A stretch of DNA of 64,000 bases from an uncultured Planctomycetia bacterium (GCA_964406665.1 CAYOSQ010000005.1:21929-85928), one strand, 5' to 3'. Positions 27,546-41,627 are shown, numbered from the stretch's first letter. Numbers and translations: made by a program. Notes: generated by a model from the letters alone, not told the origin.

Positions 27546-27956
27546 ATGTTAGTTTTTAGCATTCCTAGTGATAGAAAGTCTATTAAAAAGGCAACAAGTA
27601 AAATCTTAACATATATAGAAGATATGAATCTTCGGGAGAAACTTCTTTTTAATGTTAGATTGTGCTGTGAAGAAGCTATAATTAATGCTATTAAACACGG
27701 CAATGCCTATGATTCTGATCTCATGGTCAAAGTATCGGTTTCCAAGACTCCTGAGTATCTTAAGATAAGCGTTAAAGATCAAGGTAAAGGTTTTGATGTT
27801 AGTAAGGTTTCTAACCCTACTGCAAAAGAAAACTTACTTAAATTATCCGGCAGAGGAGTACATCTTATGAGAAATTATATGGATGAAGTTTCTTTCAGTG
27901 AAAAGGGAAACCGTGTTACAATGATGAAGTATATTAAAAAAGCTAATAGGAGGTAA
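27546..27956 (+). CDS. Anti-sigma factor / serine protein kinase (RsbW/SpoIIAB-like, HATPase_c)
   Basis: 'EEAIINAIKHG' N-box and 'VKDQGKGF' G1-box. 136 aa. Confidence 0.7.
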   Translation: MLVFSIPSDRKSIKKATSKILTYIEDMNLREKLLFNVRLCCEEAIINAIKHGNAYDSDLMVKVSVSKTPEYLKISVKDQGKGFDVSKVSNPTAKENLLKLSGRGVHLMRNYMDEVSFSEKGNRVTMMKYIKKANRR

Positions 27957-28291
27957 TGATGCAGATAAAAGAGTCTGAAAATAGCGGAGTTGTAGTTTTA
28001 TCAGTTGAAGGAGATATTGATTTAAATTCATCTCCCATAATGAGAGATAAGTTTAATGAATTGGCGCAAAAAGAAACTTCTAAAATTCTGTTAAACTTTT
28101 CTTCTGTTAATTATATTGATAGTTCAGGACTTGCCACTTTAATTGAAATGCTCCAGAGGTTGAAGAAATATCAGGGACAGTTGCGCCTGGCAAATGTTTC
28201 TGAAAAAATTAGAAGTCTTTTTGAGGTAACTAAATTAGATAAGCTTTTTAAGATGTATGCCAGCGAAGATGATGCCATAAAGGATTTCTAG
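27956..28291 (+). CDS. Anti-sigma factor antagonist (STAS domain, RsbV/SpoIIAA-like)
   Basis: 'VLSVEGDIDLNSSPIMRDKF...NYIDSSGLATLIEM' with the conserved phospho-Ser. Confidence 0.75.
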   Translation: MMQIKESENSGVVVLSVEGDIDLNSSPIMRDKFNELAQKETSKILLNFSSVNYIDSSGLATLIEMLQRLKKYQGQLRLANVSEKIRSLFEVTKLDKLFKMYASEDDAIKDF

Positions 28292-31402: not shown

Positions 31403-32425
31403 ATGAATAAAAAAACTTTAGTATTTTCAATATTTATTTTATTGTTTTGTTCAAATGTCTATTCCCAAACCATTACGGAGGATAAGCAGGAAAAGCATGA
31501 AGATAGAGAATCTTTTAGCCAAAGTTATTCTACTGAGCAAGATACAAGTGATGAATCGAGATATCAGATTGAGTCTAATTTTGGATTTTTTATAGGATTT
31601 GATAACAACGTATTCTTAGATTCAACTCGCAAGGGCGATACTTTTCAGAATTATATTTATAGTTTAAATTATTCAAATAAACTAAAAAGAGATTTAGATT
31701 TAAAGATTAAGTACAGCCTTAACTCGCTTCAGTATGATAGATACACTGATAATTCTTCTGTGGGTAATACAGGAAATTTTGCTTTAGAGAAAAAATTGGG
31801 TGGGCGTAATCTTGTGGGAATTTCTACTGAAATAGGTTCTGTTTATTATCCAAGCAATGATCAGGGTGAATATTTTACAGCTGGAGGTTCTTTGTATGGT
31901 AAACAGTTTTTAGGAAAGAACCTGTATCATCGAGCTGGTTATAGTTTTTTAAGTAAAAGTTTTATGCATCGTAAGGCGAAAGACGGCAACGGCGTTGATA
32001 TGGAAGAAGAGAGAGATGATGTGCGCCATGCTATAGATTACGAAGTAGGGTTTTATCCGGATAATCAATCATTATTTAAGTTAAAAGGTCAGGTATATAA
32101 TAATGATTCTCGAGATGGATATATGGATTATTATGATTATGATTCTTTTAAGCTTGGCGCAACATTTATAAAACTACTAAACGATAAATGGTCATCGCTT
32201 CTTAACTATAATTTTCGTAGAAATAATTATAAAACTCGCCTAATTAAAAATGGATCAGAGGCAGAGTATGATAATAATCATACTGGAAACGCAGGAATTA
32301 TTTATAAATTAAGTGAAAACACTTCAGCATCAGCAATATATTCTTATTCGCAGAATTATTCTAATGATAGCGGTCAGGAATATTCCGTTAGCATGGTATC
32401 TTTAGGCCTGCGATATGCCTTCTAA
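31403..32425 (+). CDS. Putative outer-membrane beta-barrel protein
   Basis: Signal peptide, alternating Tyr/Gly/Asn-rich amphipathic strands, C-terminal 'LGLRYAF' (terminal Phe). Confidence 0.4.
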   Translation: MNKKTLVFSIFILLFCSNVYSQTITEDKQEKHEDRESFSQSYSTEQDTSDESRYQIESNFGFFIGFDNNVFLDSTRKGDTFQNYIYSLNYSNKLKRDLDLKIKYSLNSLQYDRYTDNSSVGNTGNFALEKKLGGRNLVGISTEIGSVYYPSNDQGEYFTAGGSLYGKQFLGKNLYHRAGYSFLSKSFMHRKAKDGNGVDMEEERDDVRHAIDYEVGFYPDNQSLFKLKGQVYNNDSRDGYMDYYDYDSFKLGATFIKLLNDKWSSLLNYNFRRNNYKTRLIKNGSEAEYDNNHTGNAGIIYKLSENTSASAIYSYSQNYSNDSGQEYSVSMVSLGLRYAF

Positions 32426-34352
32426 AATTTCAAAGATAAAGTTAAACAATCATATTACCAAATCAATTTTATTCGTAGTTGTCGCTGTAATTATTTTTTG
32501 TCTTTCTTTTTTTAGAGTTTTTGATTTATACGAATTAGTACTTCTTGATCTGCGTTTTAAAATCCGACCGGTTCAACAATTCATTGACGATATAGTTATT
32601 ATTGAAATTTCTGATGATACTTTGCAGAATTTAAGCCAGTGGCCACTGCCTCGTGATTTTCATGCAAGTTTAATGGATGTTTTAAGAGAGCTTAAAGTAA
32701 AGCAGGTATTTTTTGACATTTTATTTAGTGAAAAGACTAGATGGGATGATGTTTTCAGGGCTTCTTTGAAAAAAGCAGATAATGCATATCTTTCATATGC
32801 TTTTAGATTAGATAGTGATCCACGCCCAGGTGCTTTTAGGGCTAGTTCTGAAATTATCGCTCCCTTACTTGATAATTTTAATAAAGTAGTACATGGAAGC
32901 GGACATATTAATATTTTAACTGATGCTGATGGTAAGAGTAGATGGGCACCTCTTTTCGTTAAATATAAAGACGATCTTCATCCCCATATTGCTTTAAAAG
33001 CCGCTTGTGATTATCTAGGGATTTCTTTGGAAGATGTGGCTTTGAAGAATAATTACTTATTAATAGGAAAAGAATTAAGTGTTCCTGTTTCAGATACAGG
33101 ATGTGTAATGATTAATTATGTTGGACCATGGACAAAAAGTTTCAAACATTACTCTTATTTTGACATACTTGCAGCTTATCAAGAAGAGAGAGAGGGCGTA
33201 GCTCCCCGAATCAATCTAAGAGCTTTAAGGGGTAAGGTTTGTTTTGTTGGTCTTACGGCTACAGGAACATTAGATCTGCATGCGATGCCACTTGAACCAA
33301 TTTATCCTATGGTGGGGTTGCATGCAAATATTTTCAATAGCATTGTTTTGAAGAAGTTTTTAACAAGATTAAGTAGAACTATTAATTTAGTTATTCTAGC
33401 TGTTTTAATTCTTTTAGCTTTATTGATTACGCTTAAATTTAGACCATTAAAAAGTTTTCTTACAGTTTTTGGTTTAGGTATTAGCTATGCTTTAATCTGT
33501 TTTGCTTTGTTTGTATTTCTTGGTTTATGGCTGGATTTATTCTTTCCTTTAGTAATTTTGATGGTAGTGTATTTGTCTGTAACGCTCTTGAAATTCCTTA
33601 GCGAGGCGAGAAAAAATGAGCTAATGGAAAAAGAGCTTTCAATTGCCAAAGAGATACAGATAAGTTTTCTTCCGGATGAGATAAATAAGTTTGCTGATAT
33701 AGAGATAGCCTCAGACATGGTAACAGCCAAGCACGTTGGTGGAGATTTGTATGATATCAGGGTATTAGATGATGATAAATTGGGAATATTTTTAGGAGAT
33801 GTTGCCGGCAAAGGTGTATCTGCTGCATTGGTTATGGCTAAGGCTATTTCACTGTTTAGGATTTTTTCGACTGAAACAGAATCTCCTGCAGCATTGCTTG
33901 AAAAATTAAATGATGCAATGGTTAAAGATTCTAAATCCGGATTGTTTGTAACTTCAACTTATATAATTTATGATTCTAAGCAGCATAAGGTAATACTTTC
34001 TAGCGGCGGACATCTTCCCACACTTCTGGTTAAAGGCAGGAGTGCAGAAAGTGAAATGATAGATGTTGAAGGTGGAATGCCTTTAGGAATAATGGATGGT
34101 GTAGAATTTTGTGATAAGACCATTGGTCTTAACATTGGTGATAGCGTAGTGCTGTATACTGATGGTGTTGTTGAAGCGAAAAACATTAAACGAGAAGATT
34201 TCGAAGAGGAAAGATTGGTAAGCTGCGTGGCTGAAAGTAAGAACTTAAGCGTACAAGATATTATTTCTACGATAAAGAGCAAATTAAGATTATTTGTTGG
34301 TAAAGCACCACAACATGATGATATAACTATTATTGTTTTTAAGAGAGTCTAA
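32415..34352 (+). CDS. CHASE2 sensor domain / PP2C (SpoIIE/RsbU-type) serine phosphatase
   Basis: N-terminal TM + periplasmic CHASE2-like region, 3 TM helices, then the PP2C core ('HVGGDLYD', 'GDVAGKGVSAALVMA', 'LYTDGVVEAKN'). Confidence 0.7.
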   Translation: MPSKISKIKLNNHITKSILFVVVAVIIFCLSFFRVFDLYELVLLDLRFKIRPVQQFIDDIVIIEISDDTLQNLSQWPLPRDFHASLMDVLRELKVKQVFFDILFSEKTRWDDVFRASLKKADNAYLSYAFRLDSDPRPGAFRASSEIIAPLLDNFNKVVHGSGHINILTDADGKSRWAPLFVKYKDDLHPHIALKAACDYLGISLEDVALKNNYLLIGKELSVPVSDTGCVMINYVGPWTKSFKHYSYFDILAAYQEEREGVAPRINLRALRGKVCFVGLTATGTLDLHAMPLEPIYPMVGLHANIFNSIVLKKFLTRLSRTINLVILAVLILLALLITLKFRPLKSFLTVFGLGISYALICFALFVFLGLWLDLFFPLVILMVVYLSVTLLKFLSEARKNELMEKELSIAKEIQISFLPDEINKFADIEIASDMVTAKHVGGDLYDIRVLDDDKLGIFLGDVAGKGVSAALVMAKAISLFRIFSTETESPAALLEKLNDAMVKDSKSGLFVTSTYIIYDSKQHKVILSSGGHLPTLLVKGRSAESEMIDVEGGMPLGIMDGVEFCDKTIGLNIGDSVVLYTDGVVEAKNIKREDFEEERLVSCVAESKNLSVQDIISTIKSKLRLFVGKAPQHDDITIIVFKRV

Positions 34353-34472
34353 TCTGGATTTATTTTAAGGCAGTTTATTGATATTTTCTTGCATTATAAA
34401 ACTAAATTTGCTATAAGATAAATAGAGCATAATATTGTAAATGAATTAATAAAAGTATACAAGAGAGAGGAG

Positions 34473-34895
34473 TTGGTTTTTATGCCGGGGAAAATCAAAA
34501 GAAGACTATTTATTATTGCAAATAAATACCAAAAACAGGTTATCCAGCTAGTTTTCTTTACTACCGTTGTTCCGGTAATTATTACCATAGTGGCGCTTTG
34601 CTATCTATTTTTTGATATAACTACTAATCTTATGCTTGGTGGGTATGATTCGATTCCTCTAATAAAAAAGATAATCTTGATAACAATTGTTACATTACCT
34701 CTATATATTATTATGTTGGGAATTTGGTCATATAAGATTTCTAATAGATTAACCGGACCAATATTAAGAATAAATCAAGATTTACAAGATATTATTGATG
34801 GAAAGTCAAAGCAACGTTTATTCGTCAGGGAAACAGATTATTTGAAAGATCTGGTTGATAAGATAAATGTTCTTATCGATAGGCTTAATCAATAA
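34473..34895 (+). CDS. Small membrane protein, hypothetical (two TM helices and an amphipathic tail)
   Basis: 140-aa ORF preceded by a TTGCAT-17-TATAAG promoter-like sequence and RBS 'agagaggag'. Confidence 0.35.
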   Translation: MVFMPGKIKRRLFIIANKYQKQVIQLVFFTTVVPVIITIVALCYLFFDITTNLMLGGYDSIPLIKKIILITIVTLPLYIIMLGIWSYKISNRLTGPILRINQDLQDIIDGKSKQRLFVRETDYLKDLVDKINVLIDRLNQ

Positions 34896-34978
34896 TATTT
34901 ATAAAACCCTCGCATTGTTTGTAATCTTTCATGCCAATCTTTTCGCTACTCCTGTCGTAATTTACAAAATAAAAGTAT

Positions 34979-35905
34979 ATGGATAAAACATTTAAAAGAT
35001 TTATAACACTTCCTGTAGTTGAGTTTACATTTTTCAGTATCTTAGGATTATTTTTCTGGTTTAGTCAAAAAGAGCAGAATATCTTACCTTTAATTATTTT
35101 CATTTATATTGCAGTGTTTGTACCAGGTGGAATGCTGCTTTATGCTTTTTTGCCGTCACAAAAGAAGAATATAGGTAGAAGGTTTACTTATATCATGGCA
35201 GGATTGCTTCTTTTTCTCGAGATCGGAATTTTAGGTAGACAAAACCTTCAGTTGGAAGGTTTATTTTTTACGCTACTTTCTGGTTTTTTTTCTGCAGCTC
35301 TGTTGCATTATTGTATAGCTAAGATTATTGGTCCTATAATTTTAAACAGGGCTTGGTGCGGCTGGGGTTGTTGGACAATGATGATCTTAGATTTACTTCC
35401 TTATAAAGAGAGCAGCGGTCGCCTTAAAGGAAAATGGGGATTCTTAAGATATCTTCATTTTATCGCAAGCCTGATTCTTGTAGTATGGTTCTGGAACACA
35501 TTTAGATATTCAATCCCTAAAGAAAACTGGGGCATGATAGGATTATACTGGTTTCTTATCGGAAATGCTCTGTATTACGCCTTGGGTATCATCCTGGCAA
35601 TAATTCTTAAGGATAATCGGGCTTTTTGTAAATATGCCTGTCCCATAACTGTCTTTCTTAAGCTATCCAGCATATTCTCTTTACTTAAGATAAAAACTGA
35701 CAAAGACTCTTGCCAGGGATGTCAGCAGTGTATGAAAGCCTGTCCTATGGATATACGTATACCCGAATACACTAAGTTAGGTACAAGGGTGCTTTCTAGT
35801 GAATGTACACTTTGTCTGAAATGCATAAACGCCTGCCCAAATAAAGCCCTTAAGGTTTCTGTTGGATTCGACATAGGAGGGAAGGATTTTTTGAATGAAA
35901 AGTAG
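34979..35905 (+). CDS. NapH/MauN-like membrane polyferredoxin (2x[4Fe-4S]), paralog 1
   Basis: Four or more TM helices. 'RAWCGWGCW' (NapH-type CxxxC box). Two ferredoxin motifs 'CQGCQQCMKACP' and 'CTLCLKCINACP'. Confidence 0.7.
   Translation: MDKTFKRFITLPVVEFTFFSILGLFFWFSQKEQNILPLIIFIYIAVFVPGGMLLYAFLPSQKKNIGRRFTYIMAGLLLFLEIGILGRQNLQLEGLFFTLLSGFFSAALLHYCIAKIIGPIILNRAWCGWGCWTMMILDLLPYKESSGRLKGKWGFLRYLHFIASLILVVWFWNTFRYSIPKENWGMIGLYWFLIGNALYYALGIILAIILKDNRAFCKYACPITVFLKLSSIFSLLKIKTDKDSCQGCQQCMKACPMDIRIPEYTKLGTRVLSSECTLCLKCINACPNKALKVSVGFDIGGKDFLNEK
35353..35899 (+). repeat. 547-bp perfect direct repeat, copy 1 (period 913 bp); partner at 36266..36812
   Basis: Exact nucleotide identity across the 3' halves of the two polyferredoxin genes. 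Confidence 0.95.
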
Positions 35906-36845
35906 AACTTCTTTTTTAAATCACTGGCTTGTTGCTCCCTTAATGATAATTTCGTTCTTTTTTACTATTGCAATCTTTCTTTGGATATCTGAAGGTATTT
36001 TTTCATTGCTTATATTTTCCACAGGTATATTTGTTGTCTCAGGTGCTATTTTGTATATAAAATTGCCTGAAACAAAGAAGTATCTTGCCCGTAGGATTTC
36101 TTTTTTCGCGGTAGGCATGTCGCTTTTCTTCGGCGTTGGTATCTTAGCTCAGGAGAACTTACAGCTTGAGGGATTTTTCTTCTCTATCTTAGGGGGTCTT
36201 TATCCTATGGCTATGATACATTATATGATTGGTAAAATATTTGGTACTATTATTCTACAGAGAGGTTGGTGCGGCTGGGGTTGTTGGACAATGATGATCT
36301 TAGATTTACTTCCTTATAAAGAGAGCAGCGGTCGCCTTAAAGGAAAATGGGGATTCTTAAGATATCTTCATTTTATCGCAAGCCTGATTCTTGTAGTATG
36401 GTTCTGGAACACATTTAGATATTCAATCCCTAAAGAAAACTGGGGCATGATAGGATTATACTGGTTTCTTATCGGAAATGCTCTGTATTACGCCTTGGGT
36501 ATCATCCTGGCAATAATTCTTAAGGATAATCGGGCTTTTTGTAAATATGCCTGTCCCATAACTGTCTTTCTTAAGCTATCCAGCATATTCTCTTTACTTA
36601 AGATAAAAACTGACAAAGACTCTTGCCAGGGATGTCAGCAGTGTATGAAAGCCTGTCCTATGGATATACGTATACCCGAATACACTAAGTTAGGTACAAG
36701 GGTGCTTTCTAGTGAATGTACACTTTGTCTGAAATGCATAAACGCCTGCCCAAATAAAGCCCTTAAGGTTTCTGTTGGATTCGACATAGGAGGGAAGGAT
36801 TTTTTGAATGAACGGGAGCCTGAATTCGATTCCCAATCTTCTTAG
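35895..36845 (+). CDS. NapH/MauN-like membrane polyferredoxin, paralog 2
   Basis: Same architecture. The N-terminal half is about 40% identical to paralog 1; the C-terminal half is nucleotide-identical. Start ATG overlaps the stop of paralog 1. Confidence 0.7.
   Translation: MKSRTSFLNHWLVAPLMIISFFFTIAIFLWISEGIFSLLIFSTGIFVVSGAILYIKLPETKKYLARRISFFAVGMSLFFGVGILAQENLQLEGFFFSILGGLYPMAMIHYMIGKIFGTIILQRGWCGWGCWTMMILDLLPYKESSGRLKGKWGFLRYLHFIASLILVVWFWNTFRYSIPKENWGMIGLYWFLIGNALYYALGIILAIILKDNRAFCKYACPITVFLKLSSIFSLLKIKTDKDSCQGCQQCMKACPMDIRIPEYTKLGTRVLSSECTLCLKCINACPNKALKVSVGFDIGGKDFLNEREPEFDSQSS
36266..36812 (+). repeat. 547-bp perfect direct repeat, copy 2
   Basis: See 35353..35899. Confidence 0.95.
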
Positions 36846-36925
36846 CAAGCGGTTTTTCGCCTTGCAAAAAGCTAAAATTTGAGCTAATATAATTATCAGA
36901 TTTACCCGTCGACTTTTATGCTTTA

Positions 36926-36998
36926 GGGCCGATAGTTCAGTTGGGAGAACGCCTGGTTCGCAATCAGGAGGTCGGGGGTTCAACTCCCCCTCGGTCCA
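36926..36998 (+). tRNA. tRNA-Ala (anticodon CGC)
   Basis: Cloverleaf: acceptor GGGCCGA/TCGGTCC with G3:U70 Ala identity pair, D-stem GTTC/GAAC, anticodon stem CCTGG/TCAGG with loop TTCGCAA, T-stem GGGGG/CCCCC with loop TTCAACT. CCA is not encoded. Confidence 0.85.
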
Positions 36999-37021
36999 CA
37001 AATTTAGGAAAAAATAGTAAA

Positions 37022-38119
37022 ATGAACAAAAAAAGCTTGATAACTCTCTTCTTGTTAATTATTTTAAGTGTAACGTTATTTTTCTCTAATGCTTATGTTT
37101 CTTCTAATCCTTTGAAGGAAGCGATGTATTATAAGAAACTTGAGGATAAAAAAGTTAATTGTCAACTTTGCCCTCGTAGGTGTTTAATCCAAAATAACAA
37201 AAGAGGATTTTGTGGGGTAAGAGAAAATAAGGAGGGGATTCTTTATTCTCTTGTTTACGGAGAACCCTGTGCAGTACATGTTGACCCCATTGAAAAAAAA
37301 CCACTTTTTCATTTTTTCCCCAAAAGCAAAGCGTTTTCAATCGCTACAGTTGGTTGTAATCTTAAGTGTAAATTTTGTCAGAACTGGGAGATTTCCCAGG
37401 CTTCTCCCGGAGACGTTAGAACTTACAAATTATCTCCTGAAGAAATCGTTGAGCATGCTATTAAGTCAGGATCGCGCTCCATTGCATATACGTATACTGA
37501 GCCCACGATTTTTTATGAATACATGATTGATATTGCTAAGATTGCTAAAAGAAGAGGCGTAAAAAATGTTATGCATTCTGCTGGACACATAAGTGAAGAA
37601 CCCTTAAGGCAACTGTGTAAATATCTTGATGCTGCTAATATTGATTTGAAGGGCTTTACTGAGGATTATTATAGTGAGATGTCTCTGGGAAGTCTGGAAT
37701 CTGTGCTTAAAACTTTAAAGATTTTGGATGAAGAAGGTGTTTGGGTTGAAATAACTAATCTTGTGGTACCCGGATTAAACGATGATCCCGAACTTATTAA
37801 GGCAATGAGTATTTGGATAAAAGATAATTTGGGTCCTGAGACTCCGCTACACTTTTCTAGATTCTGGCCGATGTATAAGCTAAAGAATCTTTCACCGACA
37901 CCTGTTAGTACTATTGAACGGGCAAGGAAAATTGCAATGGAGAATGGTCTTAAATTTGTATATATAGGAAATGTAGTAGGGCATAAAGCAGAGGATACGT
38001 TTTGCCCGGTTTGTGGTAAATCAATAATTGAACGCTCAGGTTATTCAATAAACAAAATAAATATAAAAGATGGAAAGTGCGTATTTTGCAATGCGGAGGT
38101 CCCTGGTGTCTGGAAATAA
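37022..38119 (+). CDS. AmmeMemoRadiSam system radical SAM enzyme with extra N-terminal signal/anchor segment
   Basis: 'VNCQLCPRRCLI...RGFCGVRE' N-terminal Cys box, 'DPIEKKPLFHF', radical SAM 'GCNLKCKFCQNWEIS'. The N-terminal 30 aa 'MNKKSLITLFLLIILSVTLFFSNA' are hydrophobic. The ORF-track start at 36941 is rejected because it overlaps the tRNA. Confidence 0.85.
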   Translation: MNKKSLITLFLLIILSVTLFFSNAYVSSNPLKEAMYYKKLEDKKVNCQLCPRRCLIQNNKRGFCGVRENKEGILYSLVYGEPCAVHVDPIEKKPLFHFFPKSKAFSIATVGCNLKCKFCQNWEISQASPGDVRTYKLSPEEIVEHAIKSGSRSIAYTYTEPTIFYEYMIDIAKIAKRRGVKNVMHSAGHISEEPLRQLCKYLDAANIDLKGFTEDYYSEMSLGSLESVLKTLKILDEEGVWVEITNLVVPGLNDDPELIKAMSIWIKDNLGPETPLHFSRFWPMYKLKNLSPTPVSTIERARKIAMENGLKFVYIGNVVGHKAEDTFCPVCGKSIIERSGYSINKINIKDGKCVFCNAEVPGVWK

Positions 38120-39575
38120 AATTGTCATAATATTAATTATTATTTTTTTAACGGGCACAGTTATTGTGGCTGAAGAAGAAATAAAATTGCCTAATGTCAG
38201 CGGGGCATTTTATCCTGCCAATAAGATTATTTTATCTACCCAGATTAATTCTTTTTTAAATAAGGCTCGAATTCCGGAGATTTCCCAAAACCCCGTTGCT
38301 TTAATATCTCCCCATGCAGGATATGTCTATTCTGGTGCAGTAGCTGCATATGGATATAAGGCTATAAAAGGAAGGCATTATAAAACCGTGGTGGTTATTG
38401 CCCCGAGTCATTTTGCTGATTTTCAAGGGTTTTCTGTGTGGAAGGAAGGAAAGTTTAAAACTCCTTTAGGTGACATTGAGGTTGATTCTGAATTTTCTAA
38501 TAGATTGATTAATGCAACAAATAAAATTAAATACTTGCCAAATGTTTTTGAAAAAGAACATTCTTTGGAGGTTCAACTTCCGTTCTTGCAAAAGGTCTTG
38601 AAGAATTTTAAAATAGTTCCCGTTATTGTTTCTCCACGAGCGAGCCTGGAAGATTGTAAAGATTTTGCTTCAATTTTAAATGATACGACAGGGAATCGAT
38701 CGGATGTTTTAGTTATTGCTAGTACAGATTTATCTCACTATCGTAGCGGTAAGGATGCAGATAAAATTGATGCAAAGACAATTTCCTGCATTAAAGATAT
38801 GGATTTAAATTCTCTTTGGGTAAAAAGCTCTTTAAAGGAAGTGGAGCTTTGTGGTCTTCGTCCGGTAGAGATTACAATTTTTTATGCAAAATTGAGAAAT
38901 GCAACAAATATTAAGATTTTAAAACATGCAAATTCTGGGGATGCTAGCGGTGATTATAAAAGGGTTGTAGGGTATTTAAGCGCTGTGTTTCTAAAAGCAG
39001 CTGTTGAAGGAGAGAAAGATATGCTTAACAATATTCAGAAAAAACAATTATTGGGAATTGCCAGAGAATCTTTAGAGTCTTATGTAAGAAGTAAAAAAAG
39101 AACTAATCCGCAAACTCAGGATGATAAACTTAAGCAAAAGACAGGTGCTTTTGTTACTCTTCATAAAAATGGACAGCTGCGTGGTTGCATTGGTAGGATT
39201 GTAGGGGATACGCCTTTGTATCAGGTTGTTGCTGATTATGCTGTTGAAGCTGCTGTAAACGATCCACGCTTTCCAGAAGTTAAAAGCGGCGAATTAAAAG
39301 AAATTGATCTGGAGATTTCAGCAATGACCCCGCTTAAAAAGATTAGCGATGTTAATATTATTGAGGTGGGAAAGCATGGAATATTGATGCGCAAAGGTTT
39401 CTATTCGGGTCTTTTACTCCCTCAGGTCGCAACTGAATACGGCTGGGATAGGGAAACATTCTTAGGGCATACCTGTCAGAAGGCCGGACTTCCAACAGAT
39501 TGCTGGAAAGACAAATCTACGCAAGTATTCATATTTAGTGCAGAAGTATTCTCAGAAGATTCTATTAAAGAATAA
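38091..39575 (+). CDS. Fused Memo-like (AmmeMemoRadiSam protein B) / AMMECR1-domain protein with N-terminal hydrophobic segment
   Basis: Memo motif 'ISPHAGYVYSGAVAAYGY...VVVIAPSH'. C-terminal AMMECR1 'GAFVTLHKNGQLRGCIGRI'. Start is ATG 38091 or GTG 38106; both overlap the radical SAM gene end. N-terminal 'IVIILIIIFLTGTVIVA'. Confidence 0.8.
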   Translation: MRRSLVSGNKIVIILIIIFLTGTVIVAEEEIKLPNVSGAFYPANKIILSTQINSFLNKARIPEISQNPVALISPHAGYVYSGAVAAYGYKAIKGRHYKTVVVIAPSHFADFQGFSVWKEGKFKTPLGDIEVDSEFSNRLINATNKIKYLPNVFEKEHSLEVQLPFLQKVLKNFKIVPVIVSPRASLEDCKDFASILNDTTGNRSDVLVIASTDLSHYRSGKDADKIDAKTISCIKDMDLNSLWVKSSLKEVELCGLRPVEITIFYAKLRNATNIKILKHANSGDASGDYKRVVGYLSAVFLKAAVEGEKDMLNNIQKKQLLGIARESLESYVRSKKRTNPQTQDDKLKQKTGAFVTLHKNGQLRGCIGRIVGDTPLYQVVADYAVEAAVNDPRFPEVKSGELKEIDLEISAMTPLKKISDVNIIEVGKHGILMRKGFYSGLLLPQVATEYGWDRETFLGHTCQKAGLPTDCWKDKSTQVFIFSAEVFSEDSIKE

Positions 39576-39576
39576 C

Positions 39577-40305
39577 ATGAAAAGATTTTTTTGTCCTAAA
39601 AATAACATCGGAGTTAATGAAATCAATATTGTTGATAAAAAAGAAATTCATCATATTGTTTCTGTGCTGCGTTGCAAAAATGGTGATAAAGTTAATATTT
39701 TTGATGGGGATGATAGAGAATATTATGGGAAGATTTCTCTTATTCAAAAAGATAGAGTAGTCATTGCTATTGCTAGTAAGCGTGAGAGTTCTGCTAAAAA
39801 GGTTACTTTAACAATTGCTTGCTCAATACCTAAGAAATCGAAGTTTGATTTTTTGCTTGAAAAGTGTACAGAACTCGGCGTCGATAGGATTATTCCAATG
39901 TTAACAGATAGAACGGTTGTTGTCTTAGACGATAAGCATAAAGCTTCTAAGGTTGAACGTTGGAGAAAGATTGTTTTATCTGCTTGCAAGCAGTGTGGTA
40001 GAAATTCTTTACCTGAGGTTGATAAAGTAAAAAGTTTTAAAGATGTTATAGGGGAAGCCGGAAATTATGATTTAGTTTTATTTTTATGCTTAGAAGACGA
40101 ACGTAGAGAAATAAAAGATGTATTAAGTAAATTTGAGGGGAAAAGTATTATCGTATTTATCGGCCCAGAGGGTGATTTTACAGAAAGAGAAATTTCTTTG
40201 GCTAAGCAGTCAGGTTGTAATCTGGTGAGTTTAGGAGATAAGGTGTTGAGAGTAGAAACTGCCGCAATATTCATTTCTTCTATCCATAAATTTATTTTTG
40301 ATTAG
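39577..40305 (+). CDS. rsmE: 16S rRNA (uracil1498-N3)-methyltransferase RsmE
   Basis: 'MKRFF' start, PUA-like N-domain, SPOUT C-domain ('IFIGPEGDFTEREI'). Confidence 0.8.
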   Translation: MKRFFCPKNNIGVNEINIVDKKEIHHIVSVLRCKNGDKVNIFDGDDREYYGKISLIQKDRVVIAIASKRESSAKKVTLTIACSIPKKSKFDFLLEKCTELGVDRIIPMLTDRTVVVLDDKHKASKVERWRKIVLSACKQCGRNSLPEVDKVKSFKDVIGEAGNYDLVLFLCLEDERREIKDVLSKFEGKSIIVFIGPEGDFTEREISLAKQSGCNLVSLGDKVLRVETAAIFISSIHKFIFD

Positions 40306-40307
40306 TT

Positions 40308-41627
40308 TTGCAAAATTCTTTTAATATGATTTCATCAATTTCCAAAATTAAAAACAAGAAAGTTAGATTTTTTACTATAGGCTGTAAGGTAAATCAATAT
40401 GAGACACAGTCAATGAGAGAGCAATTAATTAAAGCTGGCATTAAAGAATCTTCGAAGGGGCGGGCAGATATTTATGTAATAAATACTTGCACTGTAACTT
40501 CTCGTGCAGATAGAAAATCTATAAATTATATCAAAAAGGCAATTAAAGAAAATCCTAAAGGTCTGATTGTTGCTCTGGGATGTCTGGCTGAAAAGGATAG
40601 AGAAGAGATTGAATCAGTGGGCAAAGTAGATATTATAGCTACTAATAAGTCTAAGAATAATATCCTTAAGTTGATTTTAGATAAATTCAATTTTTCTTCG
40701 GGAATTGATAATTTATCCTGCGATAATTTAATAAGTTCTTTTTCTGGACATAGCAGGGCGTTTATCAAGGTTCAGGATGGTTGCAATAATAGCTGCGCTT
40801 ATTGTAAAATTCCTTCTGTAAGGGGAAGGTCGCGAAGCAGAAGTTTAGCTGAAATAACGAGAGAGGCAAAAGCATTGATCCAAAACGGCTATAAAGAGAT
40901 AGTCCTTTGCGGTATTTGTCTTGGCTGTTATGGAAAAGACCTGAAGCCGAAGAAAGCATTGGTTGACGTGATTTCAGCCATAATAAAATTAAAAGGTAAT
41001 TTTAGAGTACGCTTAAGCTCCATAGAAGCAAGAGATATTACTGATAGGCTTATAAAATTATTAGCAAGCTCTGATAAAATTTGTAGGCATATGCATATTC
41101 CTTTTCAAAGTGGAGATGATGAAATATTAAGACTTATGCAAAGAAAATATACAGCTTCGTTCTATAAAAAGATAGTTGATAAACTTAAAGAGCAAATTCC
41201 AGATATTGCAATTACCACTGATATTTTAGTGGGTTTTCCCGGTGAAGAAGATAAGCATTTTTTAACTACGGTTGAGCTTATTGAATATGTTGGGCCTTCT
41301 AGAATTCATATCTTTCCGTTTAGTTTGCGAAAGGATACATTGGCTTATGATTTGCCTTCGCGTGTTTCGATGAATATAATTAAAGAGAGAATTGAGAAAT
41401 TAGGTATTATTGCAAGAAGAAGTTCATATTTATATAGAAAACGTTTTTTAAATGAGAAACTTTATGTGCTTTTTGAAGATAAAAAAGACAGAAAGACCGG
41501 ATTCGCAAAAGGGTATACAGATAATTACATAGAAGTTCTTTGTGATAATTTAAACGTAACTAGTAGTACTTTAAGACCAGCTGAAGTCTTTAAAGTTAAT
41601 CCTGAATGTACATTTGTCCGGGTATAG
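40308..41627 (+). CDS. MiaB-family tRNA methylthiotransferase (MtaB/RimO-like radical SAM)
   Basis: MTTase N-domain 'FTIGCKVNQYETQ', radical SAM 'GCNNSCAYCKIP', C-terminal TRAM-like domain. Start may be the internal Met at 40326. Confidence 0.8.
   Translation: MQNSFNMISSISKIKNKKVRFFTIGCKVNQYETQSMREQLIKAGIKESSKGRADIYVINTCTVTSRADRKSINYIKKAIKENPKGLIVALGCLAEKDREEIESVGKVDIIATNKSKNNILKLILDKFNFSSGIDNLSCDNLISSFSGHSRAFIKVQDGCNNSCAYCKIPSVRGRSRSRSLAEITREAKALIQNGYKEIVLCGICLGCYGKDLKPKKALVDVISAIIKLKGNFRVRLSSIEARDITDRLIKLLASSDKICRHMHIPFQSGDDEILRLMQRKYTASFYKKIVDKLKEQIPDIAITTDILVGFPGEEDKHFLTTVELIEYVGPSRIHIFPFSLRKDTLAYDLPSRVSMNIIKERIEKLGIIARRSSYLYRKRFLNEKLYVLFEDKKDRKTGFAKGYTDNYIEVLCDNLNVTSSTLRPAEVFKVNPECTFVRV

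Follow-up and report, generated by a model that had tools for sequence, protein, structure and literature searches.

An AmmeMemoRadiSam system with export-type N-terminal signals in an uncultured Planctomycetia bacterium: a radical SAM enzyme that probably works outside the cytoplasm

Introduction

Radical S-adenosylmethionine (SAM) enzymes are regarded as cytoplasmic, given their need for iron-sulfur (Fe-S) cluster assembly, SAM and a very low-potential reductant. What, then, is to be made of a radical SAM enzyme that is encoded with a hydrophobic, signal-like N-terminus, next to a partner that has one as well? The question is raised by a 64-kb stretch of DNA from an uncultured Planctomycetia bacterium (GCA_964406665.1 CAYOSQ010000005.1:21929-85928; 64,000 nucleotides, hereafter the window), in which positions 34979-39575 hold, all on the plus strand, two NapH-like membrane polyferredoxin genes, a tRNA-Ala gene, the radical SAM gene of an AmmeMemoRadiSam system and a gene that joins Memo (protein B) to AMMECR1 (protein A). 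An original prediction made from this DNA proposed that both enzymes are membrane-tethered or exported and that the polyferredoxins could supply the electrons required. The evidence considered here is wholly computational. It indicates that the N-terminal segments are real and recur across much of the family, and suggests that the Fe-S radical SAM enzyme probably works outside the cytoplasm, where no enzyme of this class is known to act.

Identity of the Enzymes and Translation of Their N-termini

The radical SAM and Memo-AMMECR1 genes are bona fide AmmeMemoRadiSam components, as the original prediction had recognized, in the case of the radical SAM enzyme from TIGR04337-like hallmarks. All three components are encoded side by side and score above the curated profile cut-offs (220 bits for TIGR04337, 26 for TIGR04336 and 99 for TIGR04335; scores are given in Table 1). 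The TIGR04337 match spans residues 35-364 of the 365-aa radical SAM protein, and in the open reading frame (ORF) at 38070-39575 the TIGR04336 and TIGR04335 matches correspond to residues 41-307 and 326-494, respectively. Among 39 homologues of the radical SAM enzyme, Cys 47, 50, 54, 64, 112, 116, 119, 328, 331, 353 and 356 are invariant; they make up the CX3CX2C motif (CNLKCKFC) as well as one N-terminal and one C-terminal four-Cys site. The Memo site (H70, H102, H152, D208, H211 and C249) and the AMMECR1 motifs LRGCIG and DPRF are invariant in 32 homologues. By sequence, the solved structure nearest to the radical SAM enzyme is PflA (E=1e-7), and the AMMECR1 domain matches PDB 1vaj at E=3e-40.

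The radical SAM protein begins MNKK-SLITLFLLIILSVTLFF-SNA/YVSS and the fusion protein (M)SGNK-IVIILIIIFLTGTVIVA-EEE, where the slash marks the end of the signal-like segment. In an AlphaFold2 model of the former (pLDDT 88), residues 3-26 form a single helix, which a low-confidence linker joins to a globular domain that starts at about residue 31. The radical SAM gene has two candidate starts, ATG 37022, with AGGA 12 nt upstream, and the internal ATG 37124, with AAGGA only 4 nt upstream. Were the internal codon the true start, the hydrophobic stretch would be untranslated, or not always translated, and the enzyme would be a soluble cytoplasmic protein. This reading has in its favour that the TIGR04337 match begins exactly at ATG 37124 and that NCBI annotates an 80%-identical relative (protein P0002, 331 aa, of locus L085; L and P numbers denote loci and proteins) from the same internal Met. 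It is opposed by comparison with the closest homologues, of which 120 were assembled for each of the two proteins. A hydrophobic N-terminal extension is present in 116 of the 120 radical SAM homologues (60-80% identity, mostly Omnitrophota), its sequence drifting while its character stays constant, and the position of the internal Met is occupied by another residue in 99 of the 111 that can be aligned there (Ser in 47, Leu in 36, Tyr and others). In L085 itself the upstream frame is open and encodes MFLKLGKKGFFVLLCVALFAGLFFFIHRGIA, which differs in sequence from the segment in the window and is equally signal-like, and the JGI gene call on contigs of the same species as the window is the 365-aa form. 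An internal start is, moreover, inapplicable to the fusion protein, all of whose candidate starts lie upstream of the hydrophobic segment. Its best start is GTG 38106, which follows GGAGG (38095-38099) by 6 nt, is the first codon of the 100%-identical JGI call P0121 (489 aa) and is replaced by ATG in homologues P0200 and P0207. We read the 'MENVNFA...' extensions found in some fusion gene calls as the overlapping frame of the conserved radical SAM C-terminus.

Conservation among the homologues and the positions of the starts thus show that the N-terminal segments are translated, are under selection and are no chance product of AT-rich DNA, and both gene products are made with N-terminal targeting segments. 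The original prediction of hydrophobic segments on both proteins was upheld by their retention in character in 116 of 120 radical SAM and 96 of 120 fusion homologues, and start codons downstream of the segments, which it had named among the circumstances that would undo it, were rejected. That the enzyme is soluble and starts at ATG 37124 is therefore very improbable, although a minor cytoplasmic isoform may arise from this start. The NCBI start in L085 (5055-6050) removes the signal from the annotated protein, and database annotations of the AmmeMemoRadiSam radical SAM family probably under-report export signals.

Signal Type and Predicted Topology

Both segments have the n-h-c layout of export signals: Lys occurs in the n-region, the hydrophobic core runs to about 17 residues, and small residues lead into a polar or acidic stretch. 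The n- and h-regions are of Sec type in each case (MNKK and SGNK, each followed by 17 hydrophobic residues), and the residues at positions -3 to -1 read S-N-A/Y in the radical SAM protein and I-V-A/E in the fusion protein, where the residue at -3 is bulky. Small residues at -3/-1 occur in 98 of the 116 signal-bearing radical SAM homologues and in 90 of the 96 fusion homologues. The radical SAM segment has KK and no RR, and so lacks the twin-arginine translocation (Tat) motif; in the fusion gene an RR appears only if translation begins at ATG 38091, and it is off the Tat consensus.

Charge distribution points in one direction. Among the radical SAM homologues the net charge of the N-terminal flank is +2.16, as against -0.43 for the C-terminal flank, and the N-terminal flank is the more positive in 107 of 116 proteins and the less positive in none; the corresponding figures for the fusion protein are 84 and 3 of 96. 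This asymmetry predicts an N-in/C-out orientation in 107 of 116 radical SAM and 84 of 96 fusion homologues. The median h-region of the fusion homologues is 14 residues, typical of a cleaved signal, and that of the radical SAM homologues is 18 residues, which is long for one. Twenty fusion homologues, including the closest (56-63% identity), have a lipobox Cys at the end of the h-region (e.g., VFLNAC/SSGAQE), which implies processing on the outer face of the membrane. The fusion signal in the window has no Cys and does not match the lipobox pattern [LVI][ASTVI][GAS]C.

The presence of MlaEFD, SurA, HtrA and SecDF in the window indicates a diderm organism with a periplasm. A neighbouring exported protein begins MNKKTLVFSIFILLFCSNVYS/QT (MNKK...VYS/QT), in the same style as the radical SAM signal. 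No tat genes were found among the window genes scanned, the annotation of which is not exhaustive.

Export Signals Across the Family

The distribution of these signals was surveyed by scanning one genome per GTDB species and retaining the 80 nearest species-level loci, which come from many phyla, including archaea; the radical SAM N-termini were translated from the region upstream of each radical SAM domain. Canonical Tat signals are present in 40 loci, KR or RK variants in 10 and Sec-like signals without RR in 19-20, while 9 proteins have no extension and 2 are unclear. The Tat signals conform to the logo [ILMV][TNSD]-R-R-x-F(35/36)-[LI](33/36)-K(22/36), and their h-regions are less hydrophobic than those of the Sec type (hydropathy 1.73 vs 2.96), as expected of genuine Tat signals; the background rate at which the Tat rule matches other long ORFs in these loci is 4.4%. 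In a neighbour-joining tree the window falls in a Sec-type clade (L001-L005, L007, L009, L021, L024, L050 and others) lying within a set of Tat-type clades, and the enzymes that have no signal form three small groups.

The partner protein follows the same pattern. Signals are found on both linked proteins in 31 loci, on neither in 2 (Bacteroidales), on the fusion protein only in 2 and on the radical SAM protein only in none (Fisher p=0.01), and in the 31 loci the fusion protein linked to a signal-bearing radical SAM enzyme always has a Sec or lipoprotein signal. From the 1,695 clusters of the family at 50% identity the best 150 were taken as a wider sample. Roughly half of them are of the canonical signal-less kind and about a quarter bear signals, about 25 being of Tat type and about 10 of Sec or transmembrane (TM) type. 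The exported form thus appears, from its signals, to be a large unannotated minority of the radical SAM family rather than a quirk of this locus.

These observations alter two earlier expectations. A membrane-tethered or exported version of the system, which the original prediction called unusual, is indeed remarkable for an Fe-S radical SAM enzyme but is not specific to this locus, as signals occur in 69-70 of the 80 nearest species. The Memo-AMMECR1 fusion, by contrast, was rejected as an unusual architecture: it is present in 120 of the 120 closest homologues, nearly all linked Memo and AMMECR1 genes are fused (44/81 loci), and the fusion has been known since 2007 (PMC2034487).

Domain Fusions and Neighbouring Genes in Relatives

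Every ORF within 6 kb of the radical SAM gene was clustered in a neighbour survey. In the clade of the window the conserved unit is tRNA-Ala(CGC) - radical SAM - fusion - DsbD_2 - RsmE - MtaB. The DsbD_2 gene encodes a CcdA-like protein with the conserved motifs G-x2-C-x3-C-x-P and P-C-x-P, and stands after the fusion gene in 13 of 19 Sec-type loci but in only 1 of 50 Tat-type loci; L001, L002, L004, L005, L007, L009, L010, L021, L024 and L050 have this arrangement. DsbD_2 is missing from the window and from its two closest relatives, L081 (a contig of the same species) and L085, whereas nine clade members have one at this position, and NapH-like genes are present in these three instead.

Membrane and redox modules are also joined directly to the radical SAM domain in several of the nearest cluster representatives. 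DsbD_2 precedes it in P0364 and P0383 (from a Kiritimatiellota metagenome-assembled genome, MAG), and P0375 combines DsbD_2, FMN_bind, Fer4_5 and radical SAM domains. In P0361 and P0362 (58-59% identity) an FMN_bind domain and a Fer4_5 membrane module are followed by a TM segment and the radical SAM domain. Six TM helices are predicted between the FMN_bind and radical SAM domains of P0361 and P0375, and five were detected in P0362; the even number in the former two places FMN_bind and radical SAM domains on the same side of the membrane. P0370 and P0386 (Planctomycetota MAG) have a signal anchor followed by FMN_bind and radical SAM domains with no TM helix between them. The FMN_bind domains of the relatives bear the ApbE flavinylation motif D-x-[IV]-[TS]-G-A-T. 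NapH/NosR-like Fer4_5 proteins occur in seven of the loci, including a DsbD_2+FMN_bind+Fer4_5 fusion in L012; modules of this kind are adjacent or fused in L006, L034, L055, L012, L068 and L072 and in P0361, P0362 and P0375. Most of the radical SAM fusions are metagenomic singletons, so that any one of them could be a gene-call artefact, but the theme recurs in independent clusters. Two further proteins join the radical SAM domain to a CBM_11-like domain (P0372) or a beta-propeller of the Reg_prop/PorZ-like type (P0365), domains that are typical of surface or secreted proteins.

Two other neighbours recur. DUF362 proteins with Tat signals precede 13 Tat-type radical SAM genes, and in L020, L025, L027, L030, L047, L049, L055, L078 and L079 a DUF362 protein with its own twin-arginine signal is encoded directly upstream of the radical SAM enzyme; as judged from these signals, DUF362 is a likely second exported partner specific to Tat-type loci. 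A polytopic membrane protein of 650-830 aa with an embedded spermidine-synthase-like domain, of a kind that binds SAM or decarboxylated SAM, adjoins the radical SAM gene in 37 of the 80 loci, across many phyla (e.g., L011, L013, L016, L019, L029, L031, L036, L041 and L056); P0496 joins it to the radical SAM domain, and L068 (4521-8615) to FMN_bind and Fer4_5. It is tempting to tie this protein to SAM handling outside the cytoplasm; a crude K/R rule for its topology gave 17 in vs 15 out. The recurrence of a membrane aminopropyltransferase-like neighbour also hints at an envelope or lipid-linked substrate, as does the isoprenoid context reportedly noted by Burroughs et al. (2019). No homologue of DsbD_2, DUF362 or the membrane spermidine synthase was found in the whole 64-kb window.

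The Polyferredoxins of the Window

The two genes upstream of the tRNA encode proteins with about six predicted TM helices, CX3C(W/P) motifs (CGWGCW, CKYACP) and a C-terminal 2x[4Fe-4S] domain, in agreement with the pair of NapH-like polyferredoxins originally described. Both fall below the NapH/MauN cut-off (213 bits for TIGR02163; Table 1), and they are termed NapH-like here rather than NapH. The first 370 nt of the two genes are about 55% identical, and their 3' parts are identical. The identical part, a 547-bp perfect repeat, extends over the 3' two-thirds of each gene and points to gene conversion or duplication in the recent past. On contig L081, which comes from another sample and is shorter by 913 bp, one hybrid gene takes the place of the two; its 5' part is that of copy 1 and its tail that of copy 2. 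Either the assembly has collapsed there, or the species is polymorphic for a real deletion or a gene conversion. The exact copy-1 protein (P0241, 308 aa) is present on four other contigs of up to 108 kb. In two unrelated contigs an orthologue is followed by a gene for a PMT_2 (ArnT-like) glycosyltransferase (L086:7017-8558 and L087:6945-8468), an adjacency which hints at another usual partner for this polyferredoxin family.

As DsbD_2 is absent and two NapH-like genes lie just upstream, the polyferredoxins are the best local candidates for an electron donor, and the chance that they are a transmembrane electron-supply module for the radical SAM enzyme is put at about even.

Layout of the Locus

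The features of the locus and its flanks are collected in Table 1.

Table 1. Features in and around the AmmeMemoRadiSam locus, in window positions.
Feature	Position	Strand	Evidence or remark
CHASE2-SpoIIE phosphatase	32415-34352	+	
Small membrane protein	34473-34895	+	
NapH-like membrane polyferredoxin, copy 1, 308 aa	34979..35905	+	Pfam Fer4_5, Fer4_7, Fer4_10; TIGR02163 67 bits
547-bp perfect direct repeat, first copy	35353..35899	+	Exact-match scan, windowed identity
NapH-like membrane polyferredoxin, copy 2, 316 aa, tandem paralogue	35895..36845	+	Fer4_5, dicluster ferredoxin domains; TIGR02163 65.6 bits
547-bp perfect direct repeat, second copy	36266..36812	+	Exact-match scan
tRNA-Ala(CGC)	36926..36999	+	ARAGORN; Rfam 67 bits
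Radical SAM Sec-type signal peptide or signal anchor	37022..37093	+	MNKK n-region, 17-residue h-region, SNA c-region
AmmeMemoRadiSam radical SAM enzyme precursor, 365 aa; mature domain from ~37124	37022..38119	+	TIGR04337 398.7 bits
GGAGG ribosome-binding site inside 3' end of radical SAM gene	38095..38099	+	6 nt before GTG 38106
Fusion Sec-type signal peptide or anchor	38106..38171	+	(M)SGNK + IVIILIIIFLTGTVIVA, then EEE
Memo-AMMECR1 fusion gene; mechanical ORF opens at 38070	38106..39575	+	
Memo (protein B) domain	38190..38987	+	PF01875 213 bits; TIGR04336 268.1 bits
AMMECR1 (protein A) domain	39057..39551	+	PF01871 198 bits; TIGR04335 189.4 bits
RsmE	39577-40305	+	Downstream of fusion gene
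MtaB	40326-41627	+	Downstream of RsmE; then RecA, HtrA, RecX, AlaS

The radical SAM and fusion genes share 14 nt, an overlap suggestive of translational coupling, and the tRNA-Ala(CGC), radical SAM and fusion genes probably form an operon-like unit in which the latter two are coupled. The tRNA ends 22 nt before the radical SAM start codon in the window. L001-L005, L007, L009, L021, L024, L050 and L085 share this arrangement, with the same tRNA immediately upstream in the same orientation, and a spacing of about 20 nt recurs in at least 12 loci whose radical SAM proteins share only 53-80% identity. The tRNA promoter may drive the enzyme genes as well, their message being freed by tRNA processing. 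Database ORF calls such as P0001, P0051 and P0217 extend through the tRNA. An Rfam scan found the tRNA only and no riboswitch, and a promoter and terminator scan of 34300-40400 gave results at chance level, which are uninformative on co-transcription.

In the Omnitrophota relatives L001, L003, L005, L007, L009, L021, L024 and L050 two or three tandem pseudopilin-like genes with an N_methyl motif stand upstream of the tRNA, beside two larger conserved genes whose products look by eye like secretion ATPase and platform proteins; in the window this place is taken by the polyferredoxins. What looks like a partner-switching set (27546-28291 and 32415-34352) comprises an RsbW-like HATPase_c_2 kinase, a STAS anti-anti-sigma protein and a CHASE2-SpoIIE (PP2C) phosphatase, and is broken up by an MlaEFD lipid-transport operon and a FecR-like gene.

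A Probable Extracytoplasmic System and Its Alternatives

Signals on both proteins, together with fusions of the radical SAM enzyme to DsbD_2, Fer4_5 and FMN_bind modules in relatives, make it most likely that the whole system is extracytoplasmic. The interpretation we favour, with moderate confidence, is an extracytoplasmic AmmeMemoRadiSam system in a diderm bacterium of Omnitrophota type, served by a membrane electron conduit and acting on an envelope or periplasmic substrate. The signals would route the catalytic domains through Sec and the signal recognition particle (SRP) to the periplasmic face of the inner membrane, where the proteins would be released or remain anchored, and the radical SAM enzyme, the Memo metal domain and the AMMECR1 domain would act jointly on a substrate other than RNA. 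Reduction of the radical SAM cluster would fall to a membrane-spanning conduit of the kind seen in relatives. In most clade members this would be the DsbD_2/CcdA-like protein encoded right after the fusion gene, and in other relatives a NosR/NapH-like Fer4_5 module with a flavinylated periplasmic FMN_bind domain, at times fused to the radical SAM enzyme.

The difficulty of such a system lies in its cofactors. The problem of inserting them would be specific to the Sec-type clade, including the window, in which an unfolded apoprotein with three Cys-ligated metal sites would have to acquire its clusters outside the cytoplasm. The tight association with DsbD_2 suggests an exported reductant that keeps the eleven Cys residues reduced, and one might speculate that the clusters self-assemble under anoxic conditions rich in Fe(II) and sulfide. 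SAM might be used catalytically or, as one possibility, once only to activate the partner; the activase-like fold, with PflA as the nearest solved structure, suggests that a single activating turnover of the partner might suffice. The full sequence of events, in which the radical SAM enzyme crosses Sec unfolded, gains its [4Fe-4S] clusters outside the cytoplasm with help from DsbD_2 or a NapH/NosR-like module and employs SAM as a cofactor or in a single turnover on Memo-AMMECR1, is a tentative proposal that may well prove wrong.

Several points weigh against an extracytoplasmic system fed by the polyferredoxins. The signal and topology calls were made throughout with home-made rules. We know of no Sec-exported Fe-S protein, periplasmic SAM pool or periplasmic donor of sufficiently low potential. 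The h-region of the window enzyme (17-18 residues, very hydrophobic) fits an uncleaved anchor as well as a cleaved signal, and the Tat route, which would solve the cofactor problem, is not open to a protein that lacks a twin arginine. In L068 (1864-2847, labelled Pirellulales) and L069 (5139-6143, labelled Aegiribacteria) a short signal-less radical SAM enzyme is paired with a signal- or lipobox-bearing fusion protein, which means that the two enzymes need not always share a compartment. The missing twin arginine, the h-region and the discordant pairs of L068 and L069 are also consistent with N-terminal helices that are uncleaved anchors and hold both enzymes on the cytoplasmic face (N-out/C-in), the substrate of the radical SAM enzyme then being embedded in the membrane, as an isoprenoid lipid is. 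Access of this enzyme to Fe-S assembly, SAM and ferredoxin or flavodoxin would thereby be kept and the cofactor problems avoided, Fe-S and SAM enzymology after Sec export being chemically unlikely on general grounds, and the median h-region of 18 residues with a hydropathy of about 3 suits a TM helix. The positive-inside rule, however, runs opposite to this topology in 107 of 116 radical SAM homologues and supports it in none, sister clades have canonical Tat signals, and partner proteins have lipoboxes. In addition, the radical SAM domain of P0370 and P0386 directly follows FMN_bind, which is typically extracytosolic (PMC8238504), without an intervening TM helix. Anchors facing the cytoplasm are accordingly considered unlikely, though the main alternative to export. 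Far less probable is a cytoplasmic RNA-modification pathway linked to tRNA-Ala, RsmE and MtaB. It draws on the tRNA-Ala(CGC) directly upstream, on two RNA-modifying enzymes encoded immediately downstream in 10 loci (RsmE, an rRNA methyltransferase, and MtaB, a tRNA methylthiotransferase), and on the RNA-modification hypothesis for AMMECR1 published in 2007 (PMC2034487), but a location away from RNA is indicated by the export signals on the two proteins and by the Tat signals of relatives, and these neighbours are conserved within one phylum only, alongside other housekeeping genes.

The remaining contrary evidence concerns the source of electrons in the window. FMN_bind was not found in the window proteins scanned, the polyferredoxins included, and a BLAST comparison of the polyferredoxins with the fused NosR-like modules gave no match at E<0.01. 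The conserved unit of the clade begins at the tRNA, upstream of which the genes vary by lineage, and in L085 an opposite-strand GDSL lipase gene stands between the polyferredoxin and the tRNA. None of four polyferredoxin orthologues (50-54% identity, on long contigs from other phyla) adjoins AmmeMemoRadiSam genes, and a forward search of the 80 loci for the window polyferredoxin family beside the system yielded only two similar NapH-like neighbours (L006 and L034). With promoter and terminator scans at chance and a surrounding synteny (RsmE, MtaB, RecA, RecX, AlaS) that is plainly housekeeping, there is a little less than an even chance that the polyferredoxins are unrelated neighbours, their adjacency an inherited gene order and the true donor encoded elsewhere. 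Against this stand the recurrence of NapH/NosR-like Fer4_5 modules beside or fused to the exported system in several phyla, the presence of a NapH-like gene in exactly those clade members that have no DsbD_2, and the fusion of DsbD_2 and NapH-like modules to each other and to the radical SAM enzyme in relatives. The original suggestion that the polyferredoxins feed a tethered enzyme thus holds in part: the idea of a conduit is strongly backed by the relatives' fusions to DsbD_2 and to FMN_bind with NapH/NosR-like modules, but its link to these two genes in the window is circumstantial.

If the system is extracytoplasmic, Fe-S assembly and SAM-radical chemistry outside the cytoplasm are implied, with the Memo/AMMECR1 pair working on a cell-envelope substrate. 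A large and phylogenetically broad clade of radical SAM enzymes with Tat or Sec signals, signal-bearing partners and conduit fusions would overturn the assumption that such enzymes are confined to the cytoplasm, and would raise the questions of how cofactors and SAM reach the periplasm. It would also narrow the possible functions of AMMECR1 and Memo, which have human homologues linked to disease. For this clade at least, an extracytoplasmic location argues against the long-standing RNA-modification guess and in favour of a substrate that is an envelope component, a lipid or an exported protein. The many uncharacterised NapH-like and FMN_bind systems would, moreover, gain a candidate client enzyme.

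Comparison With Known Systems

Among membrane-associated radical SAM enzymes, viperin is tethered by an amphipathic N-terminal helix on the cytosolic face. The window enzyme resembles it in having an N-terminal helix that could serve as a tether, but this segment has an n-h-c layout and an export-type charge bias. Fe-S proteins that do cross the membrane include NapG, NrfC and the small subunits of hydrogenases, which are exported by Tat with S/T-R-R-x-F-L-K signals. Most of the sampled radical SAM relatives have canonical signals of this type, unlike the window enzyme, whose signal is of Sec type; a radical SAM enzyme that is a Tat substrate has, to our knowledge, yet to be described. Export of thiol reductant is familiar from CcdA/DsbD, which acts in cytochrome c maturation, and PF13386 (DsbD_2) proteins with conserved Cys motifs are encoded beside the relatives' radical SAM enzymes or fused to them (P0364, P0383). 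The client in the present case would not be an apocytochrome but an Fe-S apoprotein that is rich in Cys and exported, and the 64-kb window has no DsbD_2. With PflA (PDB 3c8f) and other glycyl-radical activases the window enzyme shares the partial TIM-barrel core and the CX3CX2C motif, but it differs from them by an export signal and a further two invariant four-Cys sites. Its scores against activase models fall below the cut-offs (54.8 vs 231.75 for PflA and 44.5 vs 174.35 for TIGR02494), and the locus holds no glycyl-radical enzyme.

A parallel for the conduit is provided by NapH-like and flavinylated NosR/PceC-type systems, in which FMN_bind and NapH-like modules are proposed to form a modular route for passing electrons to reductases and other enzymes outside the cytosol (Meheust et al., 2021, PMC8238504). 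The relatives' radical SAM enzymes are likewise fused or adjacent to PF12801 (Fer4_5) and FMN_bind domains with the ApbE motif. The differences are that the client would be a radical SAM enzyme, which goes unmentioned in the main text of that work (PMC8238504), and that the window polyferredoxins have no FMN_bind domain and score below the NapH cut-off. The main text of the flavinylation papers mentions no radical SAM enzyme, Memo or AMMECR1, and the portion of the supplement that was covered contains only unrelated radical SAM genes. The literature searched describes no exported, periplasmic or Tat-dependent radical SAM enzyme and does not link Memo or AMMECR1 to flavinylated or NapH-like systems; it did not include the main comparative study of Memo (Burroughs et al., 2019), which may mention signal-bearing forms.

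The AMMECR1-Memo fusion and the three-gene neighbourhood, together with the guess at RNA modification, were described in 2007 (PMC2034487). What is new, then, is not the fusion of proteins B and A but the scale and meaning of the export signals on the radical SAM enzyme and its partner. In components that score above the cut-offs, intact catalytic and metal-binding residues, adjacent genes and the common B-A fusion, the locus is like any canonical AmmeMemoRadiSam system. It differs in that both of its polypeptides bear signals, which about half of the best 150 clusters lack, and in that it belongs to a clade associated with transmembrane electron-transfer modules.

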